Positions 2,186 to 39,971 of a stretch of 64,000 bases of DNA are shown piece after piece. The translations under genes were made by a program, and so were the position numbers. The DNA is taken from the IMG/VR virus record IMGVR_UViG_3300035696_000020, positions 39,892-103,891 of that record. One strand, 5' to 3'. The DNA comes from a virus. The notes under the pieces are model-generated. The model was given only the letters and a program-made list of their open reading frames with translations. It did not search any database and had not been told where the DNA came from. Position 1 is the stretch's first letter. Every line of letters begins with the position of its first letter.

Positions 2186-2263
2186 CCGCGATGGGGTTCT
2201 ACTGGGGGCTTGTGCTCACACGAATTATGGTGGACATTTGGGGAACGTGGTGGTGGATGCCGT

Positions 2264-3352
2264 ATGAAACAACACTTGACGATCAAACTTCGCCTTCGCG
2301 ATAAGCACGCCGCAGAACTTAATCGGCAGGCTCGCGCAGTCAATGCGGTATGGAACTACTGCAATGAGGCCCAACGGCACATGCTGCGGTGGGATCGATG
2401 GTTGTCGGCGTTTGATTTGATGAATTTAACTTCACATTCTTATTTGGAGTTGAATTTACATAGTAGCACCATTCAGCGCGTTTGTGCTCGTTATGTAAAA
2501 TGCAGATTTGCAGTCAAAATGCCGTATTTGCGGTGGCGGGGGAAGAAATCGTTAGGTTGGGTTCCATTTAATACGTCTAGAGTGTCGTTTGATGGTAAAA
2601 CGTTTAAATTTCGTGGCGTTTGCTATGAGCCTATGCATTTGCGTGATTTGCTTATACCTGGGATAAAAATTGGAGCTGGCAGTTTTAATGCAGATAACCG
2701 AGGCCATTGGTACATCAACGTCCCAATTGAGATCGACTGCGTAAATGTTGCGTCTAATTCGAAAGTAGGCATTGATCTTGGTCTAAAGAATTTGGCTGTT
2801 TTGTCTGATGGCGATGTTGTTGAGGCACCGCAGTTTTATCGCAAGAACGAAGCTGCCATTGCGACCGCACAACGAGCCAAGAAAGGCAAGAGAGCGCGAG
2901 CGACCCATAGCAAGATCGCAAATCGGCGCAAGGATTTTCTGCATAAGGCGAGTACGAGGATTGCCAAAGAATACGGACTGATAGTAGTAGGTAACATCGG
3001 TCCGTCGAAACTTGCCAAGACCCATCTAGCGAAGTCAATTCACGACGCCGGCTGGGCGGATTTCAAACGTATGCTGTCGTACAAGTCCATTAGGAATGGC
3101 GGCAGCACGCTTGAAGTCTCTGAGGCATTTAGTTCCCAAGTCTGTTCGGAGTGTGGCAGTTTGCCTACTTCGCGGCCGAGAGGTATCGCAGACCTTGGAA
3201 TAAGAGAGTGGACGTGCAGTGATTGCGGAACGGTTCATGACCGCGACGTTAATGCTGCCCGGAACATTCTCCATCGCGGGCTAGCGATGCTTGCAGAAGG
3301 TGCCTCTAAGTCGGGGAGTGGCCAAAGTTGCCGGGTTGAGGCGGGTTTGTGA
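2264..3352 (+). CDS. tnpB: IS200/IS605-family RNA-guided nuclease TnpB (no tnpA nearby)
   Basis: VWNY, RuvC-I GIDLGLK, CSECG...CSDCG Zn finger, RuvC-III HDRDVNAARNI. Confidence 0.9.
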   Translation: MKQHLTIKLRLRDKHAAELNRQARAVNAVWNYCNEAQRHMLRWDRWLSAFDLMNLTSHSYLELNLHSSTIQRVCARYVKCRFAVKMPYLRWRGKKSLGWVPFNTSRVSFDGKTFKFRGVCYEPMHLRDLLIPGIKIGAGSFNADNRGHWYINVPIEIDCVNVASNSKVGIDLGLKNLAVLSDGDVVEAPQFYRKNEAAIATAQRAKKGKRARATHSKIANRRKDFLHKASTRIAKEYGLIVVGNIGPSKLAKTHLAKSIHDAGWADFKRMLSYKSIRNGGSTLEVSEAFSSQVCSECGSLPTSRPRGIADLGIREWTCSDCGTVHDRDVNAARNILHRGLAMLAEGASKSGSGQSCRVEAGL

Positions 3353-3388
3353 TAATAACCAGCCGAAATGCACTGCGGAGGGCGAGAG

Positions 3389-3643
3389 ATGTCTGAAAAG
3401 CCTATCGTTGCCATGAACAGAGAGGACAGAGACGACATCAATAGCCCTGTAATCGGCTATATGTGCCTGATCGAGTATGAATACGAAGTCGGGGCGGCTA
3501 GTGGTGGCAGTATGGTCTATCCTAGCGTTGACGATCTTAAGAAAAATCATCTGTGCGTTGATTCTTGCGGGGTCGTTGAGGTTGAGGTTCGGGCACGACG
3601 TATCGTTCAGGAACCCAAAGAAGAGGAATGGGTAGCCGAATGA
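3389..3643 (+). CDS. Hypothetical protein
   Basis: ORF with GGAGGG RBS downstream of a TTGCCG-17-GATAAT promoter-like site. Confidence 0.55.
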   Translation: MSEKPIVAMNREDRDDINSPVIGYMCLIEYEYEVGAASGGSMVYPSVDDLKKNHLCVDSCGVVEVEVRARRIVQEPKEEEWVAE

Positions 3644-3724
3644 CCACCCTCGCCAAGCGCGCGACTCCAGCGCAGGCCAAGATTAAGCTGCGGGCGATCG
3701 ACAAGTTGCAGCGGGAGTTAGGCA

Positions 3725-3937
3725 ATGAGCGACCTTAACGACGCTGACCTTGCGCCATGTCCATTTTGCGGCAGTCCCGCAGAGTTTGAACGGAAGGGCA
3801 CGCACGCTCGTTCCTGTATCGTGGCTTGTACTATGTGTGGCTGTAGCCTTGAAACCGGAGAAACTTGGAACTCAGGGAAGGCTTGGAATACGCGATGGTC
3901 GATTGAAAGAGCCGTCGCGGAAAATGGGGGAAACTAA
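3725..3937 (+). CDS. Lar-family restriction alleviation-like Zn-finger protein
   Basis: LAPCPFCGS...CTMCG...AWNTR pattern. Confidence 0.75.
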   Translation: MSDLNDADLAPCPFCGSPAEFERKGTHARSCIVACTMCGCSLETGETWNSGKAWNTRWSIERAVAENGGN

Positions 3938-7004: not shown

Positions 7005-7063
7005 GGTTACTTGACTTTTGCTGAAATCTATGGCAGCAATTGGAAATGAGAGAGGGGAATGTC

Positions 7064-7801
7064 ATGGCAAAGTTGAATCAGATTATCGCGATCGAAAAGG
7101 GTATCAAATCAAGGGTCTACAGTGAATTGACCGACTTGAACAAGGCTATCCAGAAGCCTGAATTGTTCAACGGCTTTTCTAAGACATATCAAAAGAAGGA
7201 TGAGGACGGCGAGGATTTGCCGGCTGAAAAGAAGCGCGTCCAGTTCATCGGTGATGAGGTGTTGCGCGCGGTCGAGCGGTCAATGACTGAATTGATGGAG
7301 GTCACTGCCCGTAAGGATTGGACGAACTGCGTCGCTACTGCGAATGTGGTGGTAGATGACCAAGTTCTGATCTCTGGGGCGCCAGTCAGTTTTCTGCTAT
7401 TTTTGGAAAAGCAGTTGACCGATCTTCGTACTTTGGTCGCCAATATGCCGGTTCTTGATGAGGCCGAGACTTGGAGCAAGGATTCCAACTCTGGCCTGTA
7501 TAAGACTGAGGCCACCTCGACGCATCGGACCAAGAAGGTTTCGAAGCCAATCGTTCTTTATCCAGCTACACCGGAGCATCCGGCGCAGACTCAGATGACA
7601 ACCGAGGATGTGATCGCCGGGTTTTGGCATCAGGTCAAACATAGCGGCGCACTTCCAAAGCCGGAAAAGCAAGACATTGCCAGCCGGGTTGAAAAGTTGC
7701 TCAAGGCTGTGAAAGAGGCTCGCGAGGCAGCGAACATTCACGATGAGGTCACATCGCCGGCTGTCGGTGGTGCGGTTTTTGGGTATCTGTTGGGAGATTA
7801 A
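7064..7801 (+). CDS. Uncharacterised helical protein (245 aa) coupled to the downstream ncRNA
   Basis: GAGGGG RBS, TTGACT promoter-like box near 7011; MAKLNQIIAIEKG..., LLFLEKQL, AVKEAREAAN; no catalytic motif recognised. Confidence 0.85.
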   Translation: MAKLNQIIAIEKGIKSRVYSELTDLNKAIQKPELFNGFSKTYQKKDEDGEDLPAEKKRVQFIGDEVLRAVERSMTELMEVTARKDWTNCVATANVVVDDQVLISGAPVSFLLFLEKQLTDLRTLVANMPVLDEAETWSKDSNSGLYKTEATSTHRTKKVSKPIVLYPATPEHPAQTQMTTEDVIAGFWHQVKHSGALPKPEKQDIASRVEKLLKAVKEAREAANIHDEVTSPAVGGAVFGYLLGD

Positions 7802-8218: not shown

Positions 8219-8505
8219 ACAAGGATGAAGTTTGCGACACGTAAATCCGCCACGAACTGTTGGCATCGGGAACGCCCGGTGTCGTTGTGTGGCATGAATC
8301 CCGAGGTCGGGATTTAATACGGTAGGGGAAACTCTGCCGAATCACAGGCAGAGATCACGGTTCCACTTCAAATCATGATCGAAGCCTGACTAGGCCCTCC
8401 ACGGATGTACTGGAGGGTCTGACGCCTTATTTTTCTGTGGATAAAGCCACTTAGGATAGGGCGTGCTGTTTGACATTGTGGATGTGAACGTTCACTGTTT
8501 GTTCC

Positions 8506-9252
8506 ATGAACAGTGAAGCAAACAGTACTGTGGCTGGTATTCGGGTGTGCACTAAATGTGGCATTCCGAAGCCAGCTACAGTAGAATTTTTCGTGCCGCA
8601 TTGGCGTGGTGACCTATTGCGAGGTCATTGCAGGGAATGTGAACGAGCGTATCAGGCTGCTTATCGTAAGCGTGACCCAGAAAAGTGGCGTGTTTACCAT
8701 AAGAAGCGTTATCGGAAATATATCGAAAAGCCAGAGCAAAAAGAAAAAAGACTAGAAGCAGCAAGGGCTTACCATCACAAGAACAAAGAAAAGGCAAATG
8801 CGGCAAGTCGAGAATACTATAGGAAAAGGAAGGCCGCTGGGACTCTTTGGCAGACGAACGGATGGCCAAAAAGAAAAAGAAAACAATATCTTGAGACAAG
8901 GCGACTTGCGTATCAGAGGCGTAAACAGTCTCCTAGTTTTAGATTGCGCGATGCGATTAGTAGCGCGATGCATATTTGTCTTAAGGGGAAAAAAGAAGGG
9001 CAGAAATGGGAATCATTGGTTGGCTATTCTCTTGCAGAGTTAATTGTCCATCTAGAGCGCCAATTTACCGGAAAGATGAATTGGCAGAACTACGGGAAGT
9101 GGCACGTAGACCATATCGTCCCGCTTTGCTCTTTTTCGTTTGAAACGCCGTCTGATCCAGATTTCAAGGCTGCGTGGGCGCTAACGAACCTGCGCCCGCT
9201 TTGGCGGATACCGAATATAAAGAAAGGTGGCAAAAGACTCCATCTTCTATGA
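8506..9252 (+). CDS. HNH homing-endonuclease-like protein
   Basis: N-terminal CTKC..CREC; MNWQNYGKWHVDHIVP...TNLRPLW..NIKKG. Confidence 0.85.
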   Translation: MNSEANSTVAGIRVCTKCGIPKPATVEFFVPHWRGDLLRGHCRECERAYQAAYRKRDPEKWRVYHKKRYRKYIEKPEQKEKRLEAARAYHHKNKEKANAASREYYRKRKAAGTLWQTNGWPKRKRKQYLETRRLAYQRRKQSPSFRLRDAISSAMHICLKGKKEGQKWESLVGYSLAELIVHLERQFTGKMNWQNYGKWHVDHIVPLCSFSFETPSDPDFKAAWALTNLRPLWRIPNIKKGGKRLHLL

Positions 9253-9359
9253 ATCAAGTGGGTGTCGCCCGAGCCCGCTTCCTTATCTGCCGTATCGGGG
9301 ATTTAGGCATGCGAGTCCGACGCAGAGCAGGCGATTATCGGGCGGCGGCAGAAATTCAG

Positions 9360-9437
9360 GCCGGCTTAGTTTCCAGATAGGCAAAACAGCGAGTTCGTAC
9401 CTCGCAGTGGGTTGTTCAAGTCAACCAGTCGGCTCCA
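9360..9437 (+). tRNA. tRNA-Thr(CGT)
   Basis: GCCGGCT/AGTCGGC acceptor, GCGAG-TT CGT AC-CTCGC, TTCAAGT T loop, CCA. Confidence 0.85.
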
Positions 9438-9580
9438 AGATTTCTCACGGCCCCTGTTTGAGAGACTAAGGCCCCGTCTACGGACGGACGAGCCTAAAGG
9501 GGAAGGGAGGTAGATCGCCTCGCCGTTAGCGCAATTTCCTAGGTGCCTAAAAAAGGCGGTAGCGCCCGCCCCGTGAGAAA

Positions 9581-10395
9581 GCCAATTCCCTTGACTGGGA
9601 AGGATGACGCTGAACCTTTGGATAGAGGATCGTTAGACCTCGGGGCAGTACCGAGCTAGTCCACCACGAATACCATGGCAGTAAGCCGTTTTTATAGGAC
9701 GGGGGATGCTCTTGGTTATCGCGCCATTGCGAAGTCGGAACAATGGAGTCGCAGTAACGTGGTATTCCTGATGGGCTAGAAATAGGATCGATAGCGATAC
9801 GAAACCCAAAGCTGTGTCCGGTAGGCACCGATATTTGCCAGACGTTACGAGGATAGACAAGAATGGCTTTAACACCTTCACAAAGGGTAAGTTTGTGGCG
9901 TAAAAACAACCTAGAGAAAGCTCGCGAAATAGATAGAAGGTACAGAGCGAAGTACAAAGAGAAATATGGGTTTCTCCCTTCTACTAAGTCCGTGCGAAAA
10001 GCGAGACAACTTAATCCTGCCAAATTGCTTCTTAAGTCTGCCAAAAATAGGGCTAAGCAAAAAGGTATTCCGTTTAATATTACGGAAGAGGATATTCCTA
10101 TACCTGAATTTTGCCCAATCTTGAAGGTAAAGATCGAACTTGAACCGTTTCGACACAGACATGGGCCTTCAATAGATAGAAAGATTCCATCCTTAGGGTA
10201 TGTAAAGGGGAATGTGGCAGTCATATCCATGCGAGCTAATCTCATGAAAAGAAATTACACTCTAGATTTTTTTGAAGCCGTTGTTGCCTATCTTCGTAGC
10301 GAATAACATACGCCAACGACAACGTTGACATGGATGCGGTTCGCCTCGCGGCGTAACCAATCCGGGGGACGGGGCACCTAGCAACAGAACGCCCC
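9581..10395 (+). ncRNA. ssrA: Two-piece (permuted) alphaproteobacterial-type tmRNA, interrupted by a nuclease ORF
   Basis: T arm CTCGG-GGCAGTA-CCGAG + CTAGTCC-A-CCA (ends 9666); 5' strand GGGCTAG (9773) gives G3:U70; AAATAGGATCGA D loop; pk1 9818-9839; tag ANDNVDMDAVRLAA* 10312-10356; 3' GGGGCACCTAGCAACAGAACGCCCC. 5' boundary approximate. Confidence 0.9.
9863..10306 (+). CDS. His-Me finger (HNH-like) endonuclease inside the tmRNA coding piece
   Basis: AKNRAKQKGIPFNIT..CPIL..SIDRKIPSLGYVKGNVAVISMRANLMK; GAGGA RBS. Confidence 0.8.
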   Translation: MALTPSQRVSLWRKNNLEKAREIDRRYRAKYKEKYGFLPSTKSVRKARQLNPAKLLLKSAKNRAKQKGIPFNITEEDIPIPEFCPILKVKIELEPFRHRHGPSIDRKIPSLGYVKGNVAVISMRANLMKRNYTLDFFEAVVAYLRSE

Positions 10396-10477
10396 AACCT
10401 ATCCGACGCGACACCTGCCGGGGCTGTGATGGCCGCAAGGAGTGGTGTGACAGCCTAGAGAGCGAGGTCTAAGATTG

Positions 10478-10552
10478 GCCCGGTTAGTTCAGTGATAGAA
10501 CGTCTGTTTTGTACTCAGAATGTCGGGGGTTTGATTCCTCCACCGGGCTCCA
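10478..10552 (+). tRNA. tRNA-Thr(TGT)
   Basis: Cloverleaf, loop TT TGT AC, CCA. Confidence 0.85.
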
Positions 10553-10604
10553 CTGCCGTTGGTCTCCCAACCGATCTGACACGGAGACATCTGGCCCAGC
10601 ATTC

Positions 10605-10654
10605 TTGCGGCTGACGAAGCATCGGAAGATGCAGAAACCGTTCAGGTTCCGCGG
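10605..10654 (+). ncRNA. Hammerhead-ribozyme-like motif
   Basis: CTGACGA, stem GCATC-GGAA-GATGC, GAAA, ACC/GGT stem III, GTT triplet, stem I TTGCGG/CCGCGG; A-A at the base of stem II is non-canonical. Confidence 0.45.
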
Positions 10655-10698
10655 AGTCCTCCCCGCTGGGGAATAAATGAGGACCTAGGATCGGTATT

Positions 10699-10772
10699 GC
10701 TCCCGTAGTATAGTGGCATTACATCACTCTGGTACAGTGGTAACGGCTGTCCGATTCAGCCCAGGAGCACCA
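10699..10772 (+). tRNA. tRNA-Thr(GGT)
   Basis: Cloverleaf, loop CT GGT AC, T loop TCCGATT, CCA. Confidence 0.85.
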
Positions 10773-10778
10773 TTTCTA

Positions 10779-10861
10779 GGGCCAGTGGTGAAATTGGCGA
10801 TACACGTCGGATTTAGATTCCGATGACGCAAGTCGTGGGGGTTCGAGTCCCTCCTGGCCTA
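10779..10861 (+). tRNA. tRNA-Leu(TAG)
   Basis: Type II cloverleaf, loop TT TAG AT, no encoded CCA. Confidence 0.85.
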
Positions 10862-10868
10862 GAAGTTA

Positions 10869-10953
10869 GTCCCGATGATGGAATTGGCAGACATGCGGGC
10901 TTCAAATACCCGTGCCGAAAGGCGTGCAAGATCGTGGCTTGCTCGGGACACCA
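10869..10953 (+). tRNA. tRNA-Leu(CAA)
   Basis: Type II cloverleaf, T loop ATCGTGG, CCA. Confidence 0.85.
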
Positions 10954-11023
10954 CACCACTTGTAATAGAACCACCGGAACATTACATGAACGGTGTAACG
11001 TTTAGAGTCGGGGGCTTCTGTGA

Positions 11024-11641
11024 ATGTCTACTAGACCAAGGGGGTTGGCTAAGGAAATTCGTGGTCTTCTATTAAGCGGAATGTCATCAGCAGATGTTAG
11101 AAGAAAACTTGGGGTCGGAAAGTCAACCGTTAGTTTCCACGCTCAGAAACTAGGACTTGGCGGGCGCCGTCATAAGAGAGATTGGAGCGATGTCCAGAAA
11201 TTGCTTGATGAGGGGCACACGGCCAGAAAAGTCATGGAACTTAGCGGGGTTAAATCGACTCCGTTTTATCTTGCTGTCAAAAGAGGTAAAATCACAGTCC
11301 CAACGAGGGAACACGCCCATTCTTGGCTAGGTCCAGAAGAACTCTCACAGAGATTGATGGGGAAGTCAGGTCGCGGTCCTCGTTACCGAATGAAGAAAAG
11401 GTTGCTAGAATGTGGCGTGCTAGAGTACGAATGTAAAATTTGTGGTATTTCAGAGTGGAGGGGCGCACGCATTGATCTGAGGTTGGATCACATTGACGGT
11501 GACGGTACTAATTTTGCCATCGACAATCTTAGATTGTTATGCCCGAATTGTGATAGCCAGCAAGACACTTATTGTCACAAGCACCCAAAATCTAAAAGTA
11601 GTATGCGGGAGTGGTGGAATAGCAAGACACAGCCGCCTTAA
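11024..11641 (+). CDS. HTH-HNH endonuclease
   Basis: N-terminal HTH; CKICG...LDHIDGD..N...NLRLLCPNCD. Confidence 0.85.
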   Translation: MSTRPRGLAKEIRGLLLSGMSSADVRRKLGVGKSTVSFHAQKLGLGGRRHKRDWSDVQKLLDEGHTARKVMELSGVKSTPFYLAVKRGKITVPTREHAHSWLGPEELSQRLMGKSGRGPRYRMKKRLLECGVLEYECKICGISEWRGARIDLRLDHIDGDGTNFAIDNLRLLCPNCDSQQDTYCHKHPKSKSSMREWWNSKTQPP

Positions 11642-13022: not shown

Positions 13023-13037
13023 ACTTAGGAGGGGATG

Positions 13038-13817
13038 ATGACGGCACGCGAGGTTGCACTAGACAATGAAATCCTGCGCGGGGTTGTCGGTTCGACGGCC
13101 CATGGTACGGCAATCGAAGGCCAAGACGATCGCGACGAAATGGGAGTGTTTATCGAGCCTCCCGAGTACGTGTGTGGTCTGACGCCCTGCGATCATTACA
13201 TCTATCGGGATGCAGCCGAAGGAGAGCGTAGCAAGCCAGGAGATTTAGACTTGACGCTCTACAGCCTGCGCAAGTTCTGCCGGCTAGCGACGCAGGGTAA
13301 CCCAAGTGTGATAATTCTTCTATGGCTGCCACAGCATCTCATAGAGAAAACGTTAGGGCTTTCGCTAAAGTTGATGCGGTCTGCCTTCATCAGTAGAGAA
13401 TCCGGCAAGCGGTTCCTAGGCTACCTCGTCGCCCAGAAGATGAAGTTGAAAGGCGAGCGCGCCCATACGGTCAATCGGCCTGAATTGGTCGAAAAGTACG
13501 GTTACGACACAAAGTTTGCGATGCATGCTCTCCGATTGGGGTTCGAAGGCATCCAACTGTTGACGGAACGCCGTCTGTCATTACCAGTCGAAGAGCCTAA
13601 CCTGACGACGCTTCGAGCGGTGCGGAGTGGACAGGTCAAGTTTGCCGAGGCGTTGCAGTTGATCGAGGACGCGGAGATCAAACTTCGTGGCTTGCTCGAT
13701 AACTTCAACGTTGAAGCAGATCGGGATGCAATCAACAGGTTCATGGTCGAGGCTCATCAAGAGCATTGGCAAAAGAATAAGGAAGGGTGGCCGAGTGGCT
13801 TAAGGCAGCAATCTTGA
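13038..13817 (+). CDS. Pol-beta-superfamily nucleotidyltransferase
   Basis: VGSTAHGT....DDRDEMGVF; YSLRKF..LA.QGNPS; GYDTKFAMHALRL. Confidence 0.85.
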   Translation: MTAREVALDNEILRGVVGSTAHGTAIEGQDDRDEMGVFIEPPEYVCGLTPCDHYIYRDAAEGERSKPGDLDLTLYSLRKFCRLATQGNPSVIILLWLPQHLIEKTLGLSLKLMRSAFISRESGKRFLGYLVAQKMKLKGERAHTVNRPELVEKYGYDTKFAMHALRLGFEGIQLLTERRLSLPVEEPNLTTLRAVRSGQVKFAEALQLIEDAEIKLRGLLDNFNVEADRDAINRFMVEAHQEHWQKNKEGWPSGLRQQS

Positions 13818-24596: not shown

Positions 24597-25004
24597 GATT
24601 GGTGAGGGTGTGCATGATGGAATCTCCAAGGCGTACAGTTCGACCGATTCGCAAGGAAGTCAAGCCAAAGGGAATGTCCTACTGGCGCGTACCTAACAAT
24701 GGCTACGTGCTCCCGAGGCTTCAATCTCCTGGCGTGGCTGACAAACTAGAGAGCGCAGTAGGCTTTTGGACGCCGCAGGGGCCAGACTTCGAAGGGTTGT
24801 GGGCGAAGAAGTGAATGGCTCGCCCAGTCTACTACCGCGTCCGTGTCCGTCGTGCAACAGAAACTTGGGTCGAAGTCGCCGCCTTATCCACAGAAAACGC
24901 CGAAGATGAGGCATTAAAAGTGCCTGGGGTCTTGAGCGTCTTTGGGAAGTCGGCTATACGTGTAGATGAGACGAATCGGCCGGGGAGACCTGAGGGGGTC
25001 CGGG

Positions 25005-25577
25005 ATGAGTGAAGGAATTGTAGAGATTGGCGTTTATGCGCCACCATTCGAGCCCTTCCAGAAGATAGCACGCCTTAGCCGCGAATGCTACGTGCTCGAA
25101 AAAATTGATGGCACGAATGGGCAAGTTTACATCACCGAGGATGGCGACATCTTTGCCGGTAGTCGCACTCGCTGGGTAACTCCCGAGCAAGACAACGCAG
25201 GCTTTGCGAAGTGGGTACAGGGCAATAAGATGGACCTGCTAAGGCTTGGTCCTGGCAGGCATTTTGGTGAATGGTGGGGCGCTGGTATCCAAAGGGGTTA
25301 CGGCCTCAAGGAAAAGCGGTTCTCGCTATTCAATGTGTCACGGTGGGGAGATGATGCGGTGCGGCCGGCGTGCTGCCATGTGGTGCCGGTGCTGTATCGT
25401 GGCGAGTTCGATACGCAGACGGTTCAGTATTATCTCGATCGGTTGCGCGAGCGTGGTTCATTGGCAGCGCCTGGGTTCAATCGTCCCGAGGGTATCGTAG
25501 TCTACCACACTGCGGGCAATCTCCTATTCAAGAAGACGATCGAGGACGACGCAACTCCGAAAAGTATGGTGGCGTGA
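25005..25577 (+). CDS. ATP-dependent RNA ligase-like protein (adenylation domain only)
   Basis: Motif I EKIDGTN, GSR, FGEWWG, FSLF, PEGIVV, KK. Confidence 0.8.
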   Translation: MSEGIVEIGVYAPPFEPFQKIARLSRECYVLEKIDGTNGQVYITEDGDIFAGSRTRWVTPEQDNAGFAKWVQGNKMDLLRLGPGRHFGEWWGAGIQRGYGLKEKRFSLFNVSRWGDDAVRPACCHVVPVLYRGEFDTQTVQYYLDRLRERGSLAAPGFNRPEGIVVYHTAGNLLFKKTIEDDATPKSMVA

Positions 25578-39389: not shown

Positions 39390-39971
39390 ATGACTTCTGA
39401 TGAGGCAACCGCGTACACTGCAATACCACAAGCGGATACCGTAGCACCTGGGCGTCGCGGACCAGGACGGCCAAGAAAGAACGCAGAACACGCGCCACAA
39501 CATACCGCAGCCCATACTGCGGAACGGGAAGTAGAACGCGAGCCGGCACATAGCACGCCTCGCCGTATGCGTCGCCGCAAGGGATTGCAGCATGACGACC
39601 CGTTCTACATCCCACTAGACGAGATTCCCGAGGGGTTGAGCTACGAGTGGAAGCGATTCTCCGTGGCCGGTCAAGAGGACCCGTTCTACCTCGCGCAGAT
39701 GCGTGCACAGGGCTGGGAGCCGGTTGATCCGAAGATGCATCCCAATTGGGTGCCACCGGATTACACCGCACCGAACATCATCAAGGGTGGGCAGATTCTC
39801 ATGGAACGCCCGATCGAACTCACCAACGAGGCCCGTGCGGAACTTGATGCCCTTGCGAATCAGCAAATGCGCGAAGTCCGAGCACGTGTTGGCAAGTCTG
39901 AGCCGGGCGAACTGGAGCGGGTCAAGCCAAGGATTGAGAACGAGTGGAACCGGATGGTGGTTGAGGAATAA
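39390..39971 (+). CDS. Conserved head-region protein
   Basis: IPEGLSYEWKR.S..GQ.D, GWEPV, GGQILMERP. Confidence 0.65.
   Translation: MTSDEATAYTAIPQADTVAPGRRGPGRPRKNAEHAPQHTAAHTAEREVEREPAHSTPRRMRRRKGLQHDDPFYIPLDEIPEGLSYEWKRFSVAGQEDPFYLAQMRAQGWEPVDPKMHPNWVPPDYTAPNIIKGGQILMERPIELTNEARAELDALANQQMREVRARVGKSEPGELERVKPRIENEWNRMVVEE

Follow-up and report, generated by a model that had tools for sequence, protein, structure and literature searches.

A helix-closed nuclease cassette in the pk1-resume linker of a permuted tmRNA gene from a phage

Inspection of a 64-kb stretch of a peat-soil phage genome of about 104 kb (IMG/VR record IMGVR_UViG_3300035696_000020, positions 39,892–103,891; hereafter the window, to which all coordinates refer) revealed a transfer-messenger RNA (tmRNA) gene that holds an open reading frame (ORF) for a nuclease between the pseudoknot pk1 and the resume codon of its tag frame. 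The best explanation for the locus is a single gene, an alpha-type permuted phage tmRNA whose pk1-resume linker was invaded by a 459-nt cassette (9843–10301). The ends of the cassette are predicted to form a 28-bp helix whose base lies exactly at the insertion point, an architecture like that of the ORF-bearing intervening sequences (IVSs) of 23S rRNA. By analogy with these, the best-supported reading is that of an IVS-like selfish cassette that host RNase III would excise from the transcript, leaving a functional three-piece tmRNA; we place it just short of an even chance.

The insert in the pk1-resume linker and its closing helix

A preliminary description of the locus, made from the sequence alone, had reported a 147-aa ORF with its own ribosome binding site, starting 23 nt after pk1 and ending 5 nt before the GCC resume codon, and the coordinates read from the sequence agree with it. 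The ORF (9863–10306, + strand) occupies the space that separates pk1 from the resume codon and ends with the stop codon TAA at 10304–10306; a Shine-Dalgarno (SD) sequence, GAGGA (9850–9854), lies 8 nt 5′ of its ATG (9863–9865). It represents 444 nt of the 459 inserted nt. The coding piece is therefore not continuous as it is in a tmRNA gene where pk1 is followed about 12 nt later by the resume codon; here 472 nt separate the end of pk1 (9839) from the GCC codon (10312). The GC content of the ORF is 39.9%, while the window as a whole has 52.3% and the parts of the tmRNA have 54%, which marks the ORF as foreign DNA.

In a further 140 tmRNA genes, the tag frame was found to begin with the same 22 nt. 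They are located in 3 viral contigs, 75 metagenome contigs and 62 bacterial genomes, the latter mostly from Microvirga and Enterovirga, together with Camelimonas, a Methylorubrum metagenome-assembled genome (MAG) and Rhodospirillaceae MAGs. All 140 are uninterrupted wherever the upstream DNA is present, with at most 30 nt separating pk1 and the resume codon. A linker of 12 nt is the most frequent; the preliminary description had stated that the resume codon normally lies about a dozen nucleotides after pk1. The distance from the acceptor 5′ strand to the resume codon is 80–88 nt in the 30 relatives in which the motif could be placed, versus 539 nt in the phage gene. Removing exactly positions 9843–10301 leaves pk1-AGA-AATAACATAC-GCC, that is, a 13-nt linker, and the insert-deleted sequence aligns in register with the uninterrupted viral relatives. 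According to this alignment, the 5′ remnant of the linker is AGA (9840–9842, + strand) and the 3′ remnant is AATAACATAC (10302–10311, + strand), which holds the stop codon of the ORF as well as C10307 and A10308, at positions -5 and -4 relative to the resume codon. In Escherichia coli, the frame-setting information lies in the 11 nt that separate pk1 from the resume codon; A86 (position -4) is essential, while changes of one nucleotide in linker length are tolerated (PMC2481249). A pyrimidine at position 85 and a purine at position 86 are favoured among the determinants read by SmpB (PMC2481249, PMC8363625). With a 13-nt linker, the C at -5 and the A at -4, the elements that are read have therefore been left untouched by the insert.

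The preliminary description overlooked a long-range helix that closes the insert and whose base coincides with the insert boundaries. Positions 9843–9872 pair with 10272–10301 (both on the + strand) to form 28 bp with two 1x1 mismatches, as indicated by minimum free energy (MFE) folds, duplex energy and pair probabilities. The 5′ strand corresponds to the leader and first codons of the ORF, and both the SD sequence and the AUG (9863–9865) are paired; the 3′ strand lies in the last 11 codons, which code for the C-terminal helix of the protein in the AlphaFold model. The helix was present in the MFE fold of three nested constructs (501, 628 and 816 nt), and the ensemble pair probability was at least 0.93 for 26 of its 28 pairs. 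The energy of the isolated duplex was -40.4 kcal/mol, versus -13.7 ± 3.3 kcal/mol in 2000 shuffles of the two 40-nt flanks of the ORF (minimum -27.8; z = -8.1), and no stronger helix was found among the 111 start-flank/stop-flank pairs of the window ORFs of at least 100 aa. With the helix formed, the sequence shows the native spacing of the linker and its frame-setting bases to be kept.

At 55 loci encoding homologues of the nuclease no such helix was found: the best duplex, obtained with the most favourable start chosen, reached -29 kcal/mol and was irregular. The possibility that the closing helix is a trait of the nuclease family was accordingly rejected; it belongs to this insertion, not to the nuclease gene family. 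The other nuclease ORFs near the tmRNA gene (8506–9252 and 11024–11641) lack a closing helix comparable to that of the tmRNA cassette.

Predicted processing of the transcript and alternative readings

The preliminary description had left open whether the ORF is looped out of a working tmRNA that also serves as an mRNA, whether the RNA is matured into three pieces, or whether the gene was inactivated by a homing nuclease that would target the ssrA of other phages. Since the helix lies at the insert boundaries and restores the linker, the first two options, an insulated insert or a three-piece RNA, are favoured over simple inactivation. The helix argues against the idea that the folded RNA doubles as an mRNA, given that the SD sequence and the AUG are paired in it. 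For this reason, the nuclease would be translatable only from a transcript in which the helix has not closed, either the nascent transcript or one in which ribosomes hold the helix open. One transcript would thus be kinetically partitioned between an mRNA and a tmRNA fate.

Once closed, the helix would fold the 400-odd nt of foreign RNA into a side arm, while pk1, the 13-nt linker and the tag frame would keep their spacing. The duplex, of two and a half turns, would be a substrate for the host RNase III, and the loop would be cut out without religation. The expected product would consist of the acceptor piece, a second piece that contains the 5′ part of the tRNA-like domain (TLD), P2 and pk1 and ends in the 5′ half of the stem, and, third, a tag piece that starts with the 3′ half. 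The tag piece would be held to the TLD-5′/pk1 piece by a basal stub of 10–14 bp; for comparison, the acceptor stem that helps to hold the ordinary two pieces together has 7 bp, and the energy computed for the basal 14 bp of the helix alone is -19.3 kcal/mol. As for the nuclease, the mobile behaviour of its family leads us to presume that it would cut the tmRNA alleles of co-infecting relatives that lack the cassette and so spread the latter.

The closest precedent is the IVS of helix 45 in the 23S rRNA of Coxiella burnetii. It is 428 nt long, with a terminal stem of 28 bp, an ORF in the loop and the SD sequence in the stem; RNase III cuts midway along the stem, the RNA is not religated, and the remaining stem may hold the pieces together (PMC4990558). 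RNase III also acts on the IVSs found in many Alphaproteobacteria (PMC4990558), and others occur in Leptospira and Salmonella. The phage cassette resembles these IVSs in being a selfish insert of about 430–460 nt that interrupts the gene of a stable, structured RNA where relatives have no insert, with a 28-bp stem containing one or two imperfections, an ORF in the loop and the SD region in the stem. In both cases one would expect the interrupted RNA to function in pieces once RNase III has excised the insert without ligation; for the tmRNA, cleavage is proposed on the basis of the Coxiella and alphaproteobacterial precedent. The differences concern the host gene (a tmRNA rather than 23S or 16S rRNA), the cargo (a nuclease, plausibly a mobility gene, rather than an S23p four-helix-bundle protein) and the site, which is a single-stranded linker that is read, 11 nt from the resume codon, rather than the tip of a peripheral helix.

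It could instead be argued that the RNA is functional without being cut, the ORF forming a permanent side arm on a working two-piece tmRNA. This would fit the local geometry restored by the helix, and the structure of pk1 can be altered without loss of ribosome rescue (Miller et al., PMC2481249). However, an arm of ~430 nt folded next to pk1 would impose a heavy steric burden at translocation, and a 28-bp perfect-type duplex is unlikely to escape bacterial RNase III (PMC4990558); we consider this possibility improbable. During translocation pk1 is pulled between the ribosomal subunits, and the tmRNA must pass the intersubunit bridges (PMC8363625). Because pk1 must travel in this way, the uncut form is probably not competent, and RNase III processing would be necessary rather than optional. 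By our own estimate, a short stub beside pk1 looks feasible and a folded 430-nt arm does not.

The preliminary description had seen no intron scaffold and no room for a group I or group II core, and the absence of a scaffold holds: group I and group II intron covariance models gave no match in 9400–10600, even at E ≤ 1, while the same Rfam library detected a group I intron in an unrelated locus (L010, see below). A further reading is protein-dependent splicing, the loop being cut out and the halves rejoined, for example by a phage RNA-ligase-like protein. The phage does encode an ORF with a PF09414 RNA_ligase domain and an RlaP nucleotidyltransferase. Splicing of this kind is nevertheless very unlikely: in addition to the intron core, RtcB is missing, and the literature searched contained no bacterial or phage precedent. 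RNase III leaves a 5′-phosphate and a 3′-OH on a staggered duplex, and such ends are not the usual substrates of tRNA-repair ligases.

A more serious alternative, although still an unlikely one, is that the tmRNA is dead. The nuclease would have inactivated ssrA, and the helix would either serve just to throttle a potentially toxic nuclease or be a relic of the cassette. The pk1-resume linker of E. coli is short and matters for function (PMC2481249). The contigs from X1 and X2 that cover the locus (see below) are identical, and the insertion could be too recent for decay to be visible; there are also no diverged relatives of the cassette that could reveal selection. On the other hand, local hairpins would suffice to hide an SD sequence, and here the SD sequence and AUG pair with the last codons of the ORF, 430 nt away, in a way that closes the insert. 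In addition, the helix has its base right at the boundaries of the insertion, where it re-creates a linker of 13 nt with a pyrimidine at -5 and an A at -4, homologues of the nuclease occur elsewhere without such a helix, and all the tmRNA pairings, the tag with its LAA end and the stop codon are intact.

Several points weigh against a functional three-piece tmRNA. The helix rests on thermodynamics and on controls within one sequence; no close relatives of the cassette were found, which leaves the helix without covariation support. None of the public runs listed for the stretch was an RNA run containing this sequence. Searches of the phage proteins for RNase III, SmpB and RtcB found none of them; the phage would therefore rely on its host, and the dependence on host RNase III and SmpB counts against the proposal. 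Finally, a gene killed by a recent insertion would also look intact, and a helix that hides the SD sequence could exist only to restrain a toxic nuclease.

The published tmRNA catalogue provides a frame for these observations. The 2025 tmRNA database contains 97,179 unique sequences in three gene forms, namely standard, permuted and intron; the known interruptions are 883 group I introns, every one of them located within the T loop (at four subsites), 36 of them with LAGLIDADG genes (PMC11915505). The preliminary description had likewise described the tmRNA introns as group I introns in the T loop. The database authors note that interruptions at other sites may have been missed systematically (PMC11915505). 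The phage gene is a bona fide member of the published permuted form (RF01849, RF01850, RF01851, RF04321), with matches above the Rfam cut-offs. It resembles the intron form in having a mobile interruption able to carry an endonuclease gene, and differs from it in the site (the pk1-resume linker), the absence of a ribozyme, the PacI-like nuclease and the fact that the gene is also permuted. A ribozyme-free, helix-clamped cassette with a PacI-like nuclease gene in the linker of a permuted tmRNA is absent from that catalogue.

Small nuclease genes are also known as free-standing homing endonuclease genes in phages, as with Seg and Mob of T4 and the HNH genes in the tRNA region of T5. The cassette is similar to these in that it consists of a small nuclease gene that is not in an intron or intein, has a foreign GC content, is absent from relatives and sits in a tRNA cluster with further HNH genes (8506–9252 and 11024–11641). 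Unlike them, since they are normally intergenic, it lies inside an RNA gene, with an insulating RNA helix that was either brought along or acquired. The cassette combines known kinds of element, namely tmRNA gene forms, the rRNA-type IVS and free-standing homing nucleases, and is not a categorically new system.

As a possibility rather than a probability, we propose that the gene represents a fourth tmRNA gene form. It would be a permuted gene with a nuclease-encoding, IVS-type cassette in the linker, its transcript being matured by RNase P/Z-type enzymes and RNase III to a working three-piece tmRNA, and switching from a nuclease mRNA (nascent, open) to a rescue RNA (helix closed, cut). tmRNA is among the best-catalogued small RNAs, and a nuclease cassette that has no ribozyme, is closed by a stem and lies 11 nt ahead of the resume codon would add a new form to them. 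Should the RNA be functional, the linker that SmpB uses for frame setting could be broken, or could carry a helical stub, without loss of trans-translation; covalent continuity from pk1 to the tag template would then not be needed. The rRNA IVS strategy, comprising insertion, a helix clamp and removal by RNase III, would extend to another essential translation RNA, and a selfish nuclease would be seen to establish itself in an RNA gene with no intron involved. Such genes escape gene finders (here ARAGORN called nothing and Rfam gave two partial matches), and interrupted phage tmRNAs may therefore be under-counted.

tmRNA anatomy and the tag module

The anatomy of the locus can be regarded as secure, with very little room for doubt. 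The Rfam alpha_tmRNA model (RF01849) produced two matches on the + strand. The first (9585–9837; model positions 40–216; 58.4 bits, cut-off 50; E 2.8e-15) takes in the acceptor piece with the permutation spacer, then the acceptor 5′ strand, D-loop and P2, up to pk1, and the second (10263–10399; 37.6 bits; E 5.7e-9) covers the tag frame and the 3′ GCAACAGAA region. The tmRNA_permuted model (RF04321) gave a match starting at 9606 (59.8 bits, cut-off 47). ARAGORN, run in its tRNA and tmRNA modes, did not call the tmRNA, presumably because of the insert. Besides the scores above the covariance cut-offs, the locus shows the other marks of a permuted alpha-type tmRNA: a tRNA-like domain, and a tag that opens with Ala and ends in hydrophobic-AA followed by a stop codon.

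The order of the parts is the permuted one, with the acceptor piece, the spacer and the coding piece in succession, all on the + strand. A 5′ hairpin (9585–9602), aligned to positions 40–57 of RF01849, precedes the acceptor piece (9606–9666), which was delimited from the RF01849 and RF04321 alignments and the sequence. The acceptor piece contains the 3′ strands of P2, the T arm (9639–9655; CTCGG at 9639–9643, loop GGCAGTA, CCGAG at 9651–9655), the acceptor 3′ strand (9656–9662), the discriminator A and CCA (9664–9666). The permutation spacer (9667–9772) appears in both covariance alignments as an unaligned insert in the acceptor stem; such a spacer, also called IVS, is a normal part of the permuted tmRNA gene form (PMC11915505) and is removed at two-piece maturation. 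The 5′ part of the coding piece (9773–9839) includes the acceptor 5′ strand, the D-loop AAATAGGATCGA, the 5′ strands of P2 and pk1 (9819–9839). The acceptor stem has 7 bp (GGGCTAG at 9773–9779 with CTAGTCC at 9656–9662) including G3:U70, and is followed by an A and the encoded CCA, while P2 is formed by CTTTGG (9616–9621) and CCAAAG (9806–9811). Beyond the insert, the tag frame GCC...TAA (10312–10356) encodes ANDNVDMDAVRLAA and a stop codon, and the structured 3′ end of the coding piece (10357–10399) includes GCAACAGAA at 10381–10389. The Rfam matches and direct reading therefore bear out the earlier view that the elements of an alpha-type two-piece tmRNA (G3:U70, P2, pk1, the tag and the 3′ GCAACAGAA) are intact.

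The tag ANDNVDMDAVRLAA, with its LAA end and stop codon intact, is one residue away from ANDNVDMGAVRLAA, which is the most frequent tag of the type in bacteria and is encoded by 86 of the 140 related tmRNA genes. The similarity to bacterial genes is unevenly distributed. The tag-plus-3′ module (10312–10399) is up to 94% identical to tmRNA genes of the Microvirga/Enterovirga type, while the tRNA-like and pk1 modules reach at most 0.71 and 0.65 identity, respectively, among 109 genes compared, and neither of these two 5′ modules had a BLAST match. Between two bacterial lineages (L196 and L092) the corresponding values for the tRNA-like, pk1 and tag-plus-3′ modules are 0.78, 0.71 and 0.62, the TLD normally being the better conserved part. 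The viral tmRNA L088, which is uninterrupted, is a mosaic of the same kind as the phage gene (0.73, 0.62 and 0.84). In terms of sequence, a host-like tag module thus looks like a general trait of these phage tmRNAs, and it suggests a Microvirga/Enterovirga-like host and a tag that tracks the host, rather than a broken gene. The idea that the mosaic is a footprint of recombination driven by the nuclease was dropped, since the uninterrupted L088 has the same pattern.

The mosaic could also mean that the two halves do not belong to one gene. The 5′ half would be a tag-less, tRNA-like ‘mini-tmRNA’, as in mycobacteriophage DS6A, the 3′ half a captured fragment of a host ssrA (for example, an attP-type remnant), and the nuclease gene would simply lie between them. 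In addition to the contrast between the modules, islands and phages often carry tmRNA 3′ ends (PMC11915505). This arrangement is nonetheless highly improbable. Once the stem-loop is removed, the order, strand and spacing of the parts are those of one permuted gene, and the uninterrupted L088 is equally mosaic. The attP or integration version is weakened further in that a search of the phage for tyrosine and serine recombinases found none, and no integrase was found.

Another uninterrupted alpha-type viral tmRNA, with the tag ANDNVDMGSYALAA, was observed in a 198-kb contig (L089, IMGVR_UViG_3300046003_007336). The same contig contains, at 10880–11277, a match to the GOLLD RNA that scores 116.6 bits (E 2.5e-30) and thus falls short of the gathering score of 150.

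The nuclease, the genomic setting and sequence support

The preliminary description had called the product of the inserted ORF a His-Me nuclease. The fold is upheld, with PacI as the best match, but the family has no catalytic His and shows a PacI-type D-R...G-Y...N...N-x-x-K motif. The gene (9863–10306, + strand) was annotated as a PacI-like His-Me finger (beta-beta-alpha-metal) nuclease on the basis of PHROGs, the PacI motif, an AlphaFold2 (AF2) model and VIA. The PHROGs matches were phrog_3322 (‘endonuclease’, E 1.2e-31) and phrog_1035 (‘endonuclease VII’, E 3e-13), while Pfam and NCBIfam gave no match for the 147-aa ORF. In an alignment of 56 family members, G112, Y113, N117, N126 and K129 are invariant and D105 and R106 near-invariant; all of them are present in this ORF. 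The alignment has no conserved His at the position of the general base. A profile search of PDB sequences aligned the core motif for motif with residues 87–124 of PacI, as a weak match (E 0.35). The AF2 model had a predicted local distance difference test (pLDDT) score of 93.4. Its best VIA match was PacI (3ldy_A; root-mean-square deviation 3.2 Å over 89 residues) with a moderate Z of 6.7, followed by Hpy99I (5.0), TasH (4.6), Gme HNH (4.5) and T4 endonuclease VII (3.7), all of them beta-beta-alpha-metal nucleases. Foldseek alone gave no match at E ≤ 0.001; PacI ranked second there, with a probability of 0.75.

In PacI, a Tyr from the omega loop stands in for the catalytic His of the His-Me finger (PMC5714182). 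On the evidence of the conserved residues and the model, the ORF apparently encodes an intact PacI-type nuclease with Tyr in place of the catalytic His. It shares with PacI (PDB 3LDY/3M7K; His-Me finger group 20, Jablonska et al. 2017, PMC5714182) the beta-beta-alpha-metal fold, the absence of the His and the motif, D-R...G-Y...N...N-x-x-K corresponding to VDRSDSFEGY...N...CNRIKS in PacI. Like that group, it is about 145 aa long and belongs to a predominantly viral family. In contrast, identity to PacI is 14%, the N-terminal half of the protein is a helical repeat region, and the two four-cysteine zinc sites of PacI do not appear to be conserved; only C84 is near-invariant in the family alignment, and the core of the ORF contains a single Cys.

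A total of 132 relatives of the nuclease were found in viral contigs (at most 54% identity), together with 88 metagenome clusters. Its members are dispersed among more than 130 viral contigs, with a single copy in this phage. The inserted gene shows two marks of a mobile gene, presence/absence polymorphism at a conserved site (it is absent from the 140 relatives) and foreign GC content. The family as a whole was rejected as tmRNA-specific, a nearby tmRNA being found at just one of 80 viral loci. At this locus (L010, IMGVR_UViG_3300000567_000033, 2968–3898), a free-standing gene for a 142-aa homologue (42% identity), not a near relative of the ORF, lies ~190 nt 5′ of a beta-type permuted tmRNA (RF04321, 77.4 bits). 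The contig, of 7.4 kb, also contains a group I intron-like match at 2191–2373 (48.6 bits, just under the cut-off of 50). This neighbourhood is a weak hint, to be taken as a lead only. A search with RF04321 over the other 79 viral records of the nuclease family gave one sub-threshold match, 25 kb from the nuclease gene.

The window is the final 64 kb of a 103,891-bp record with terminal repeats of 127 bp and a completeness rating of 100%, assembled from peat metagenomes. The interrupted tmRNA gene heads an array of ~30 tRNA genes. On its 5′ side lie replication genes and genes for a TnpB-like protein, a NusG-like protein, an AAA/BCS1 ATPase, a DUF7873 protein and a canonical HNH protein. The TnpB-like ORF (2210–3352), within the replication module, contains OrfB_IS605 and Cas12f1-like TNB domains (E 7.7e-23). 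The canonical H-N-H ORF (8506–9252; phrog_1035) stops 108 nt 5′ of a tRNA-Thr gene, and an HTH_7/HNH_3-like ORF (11024–11641) lies within the tRNA array region. The ORF with the PF09414 domain (24966–25577; 203 aa; E 1.4e-14), the gene for the RlaP RNA-repair nucleotidyltransferase (13035–13817) and the DUF7873 gene (7040–7801) suggest an RNA-repair toolkit around the tRNA array.

The preliminary description had raised the possibility of an assembly chimera, and the data did not bear this out. The only point in favour of an assembly artefact that joined a nuclease gene to tmRNA fragments is that the sequence comes from a metagenome. Run X1, possibly the source sample, has a contig that covers 9265–10745 and spans the locus, and contigs of a second study of peat (X2) cover 9385–9851, 9881–10040 and 10041–10853; neither showed any difference from the window. 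X2 bridges the right junction and extends just 12 nt beyond pk1 on the left, so that the left junction is not independently bridged. The contigs of DNA runs over the locus revealed no assembly joint and no cassette-free form. With identical contigs from two studies, and given that a chimera would not create a 28-bp helix across both joints, an artefact is barely credible.

Searches for sister phages with the AAA/BCS1 protein as a marker gave no relative, and those with DUF7873 gave two phages of ~100 kb (L083 and L084), both without a tmRNA. Exact scans with a D-loop/P2 22-mer in viral contigs and with a pk1 22-mer in metagenome contigs detected no close relative of the tmRNA 5′ half, and a cassette-free allele of this phage was not found in viral, metagenome or run contigs. 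The sole sign of a near relative outside peat was a 151-nt contig from an aquatic metagenome (run X3), ~98% identical to 9693–9821 (spacer and 5′ coding part) and differing from the window at 9723 and 9783, among other positions; it is too short to show whether the cassette is present. A scan for promoters and terminators gave nothing over shuffle expectation that bears on the insert. A weak terminator-like hairpin followed by a T-run was noted at 9675–9689, in the permutation spacer. Terminator-like sites are over-represented in 8400–11100 (9, versus 3.0 ± 1.7 in shuffles), an excess that probably reflects the many RNA hairpins of the region.

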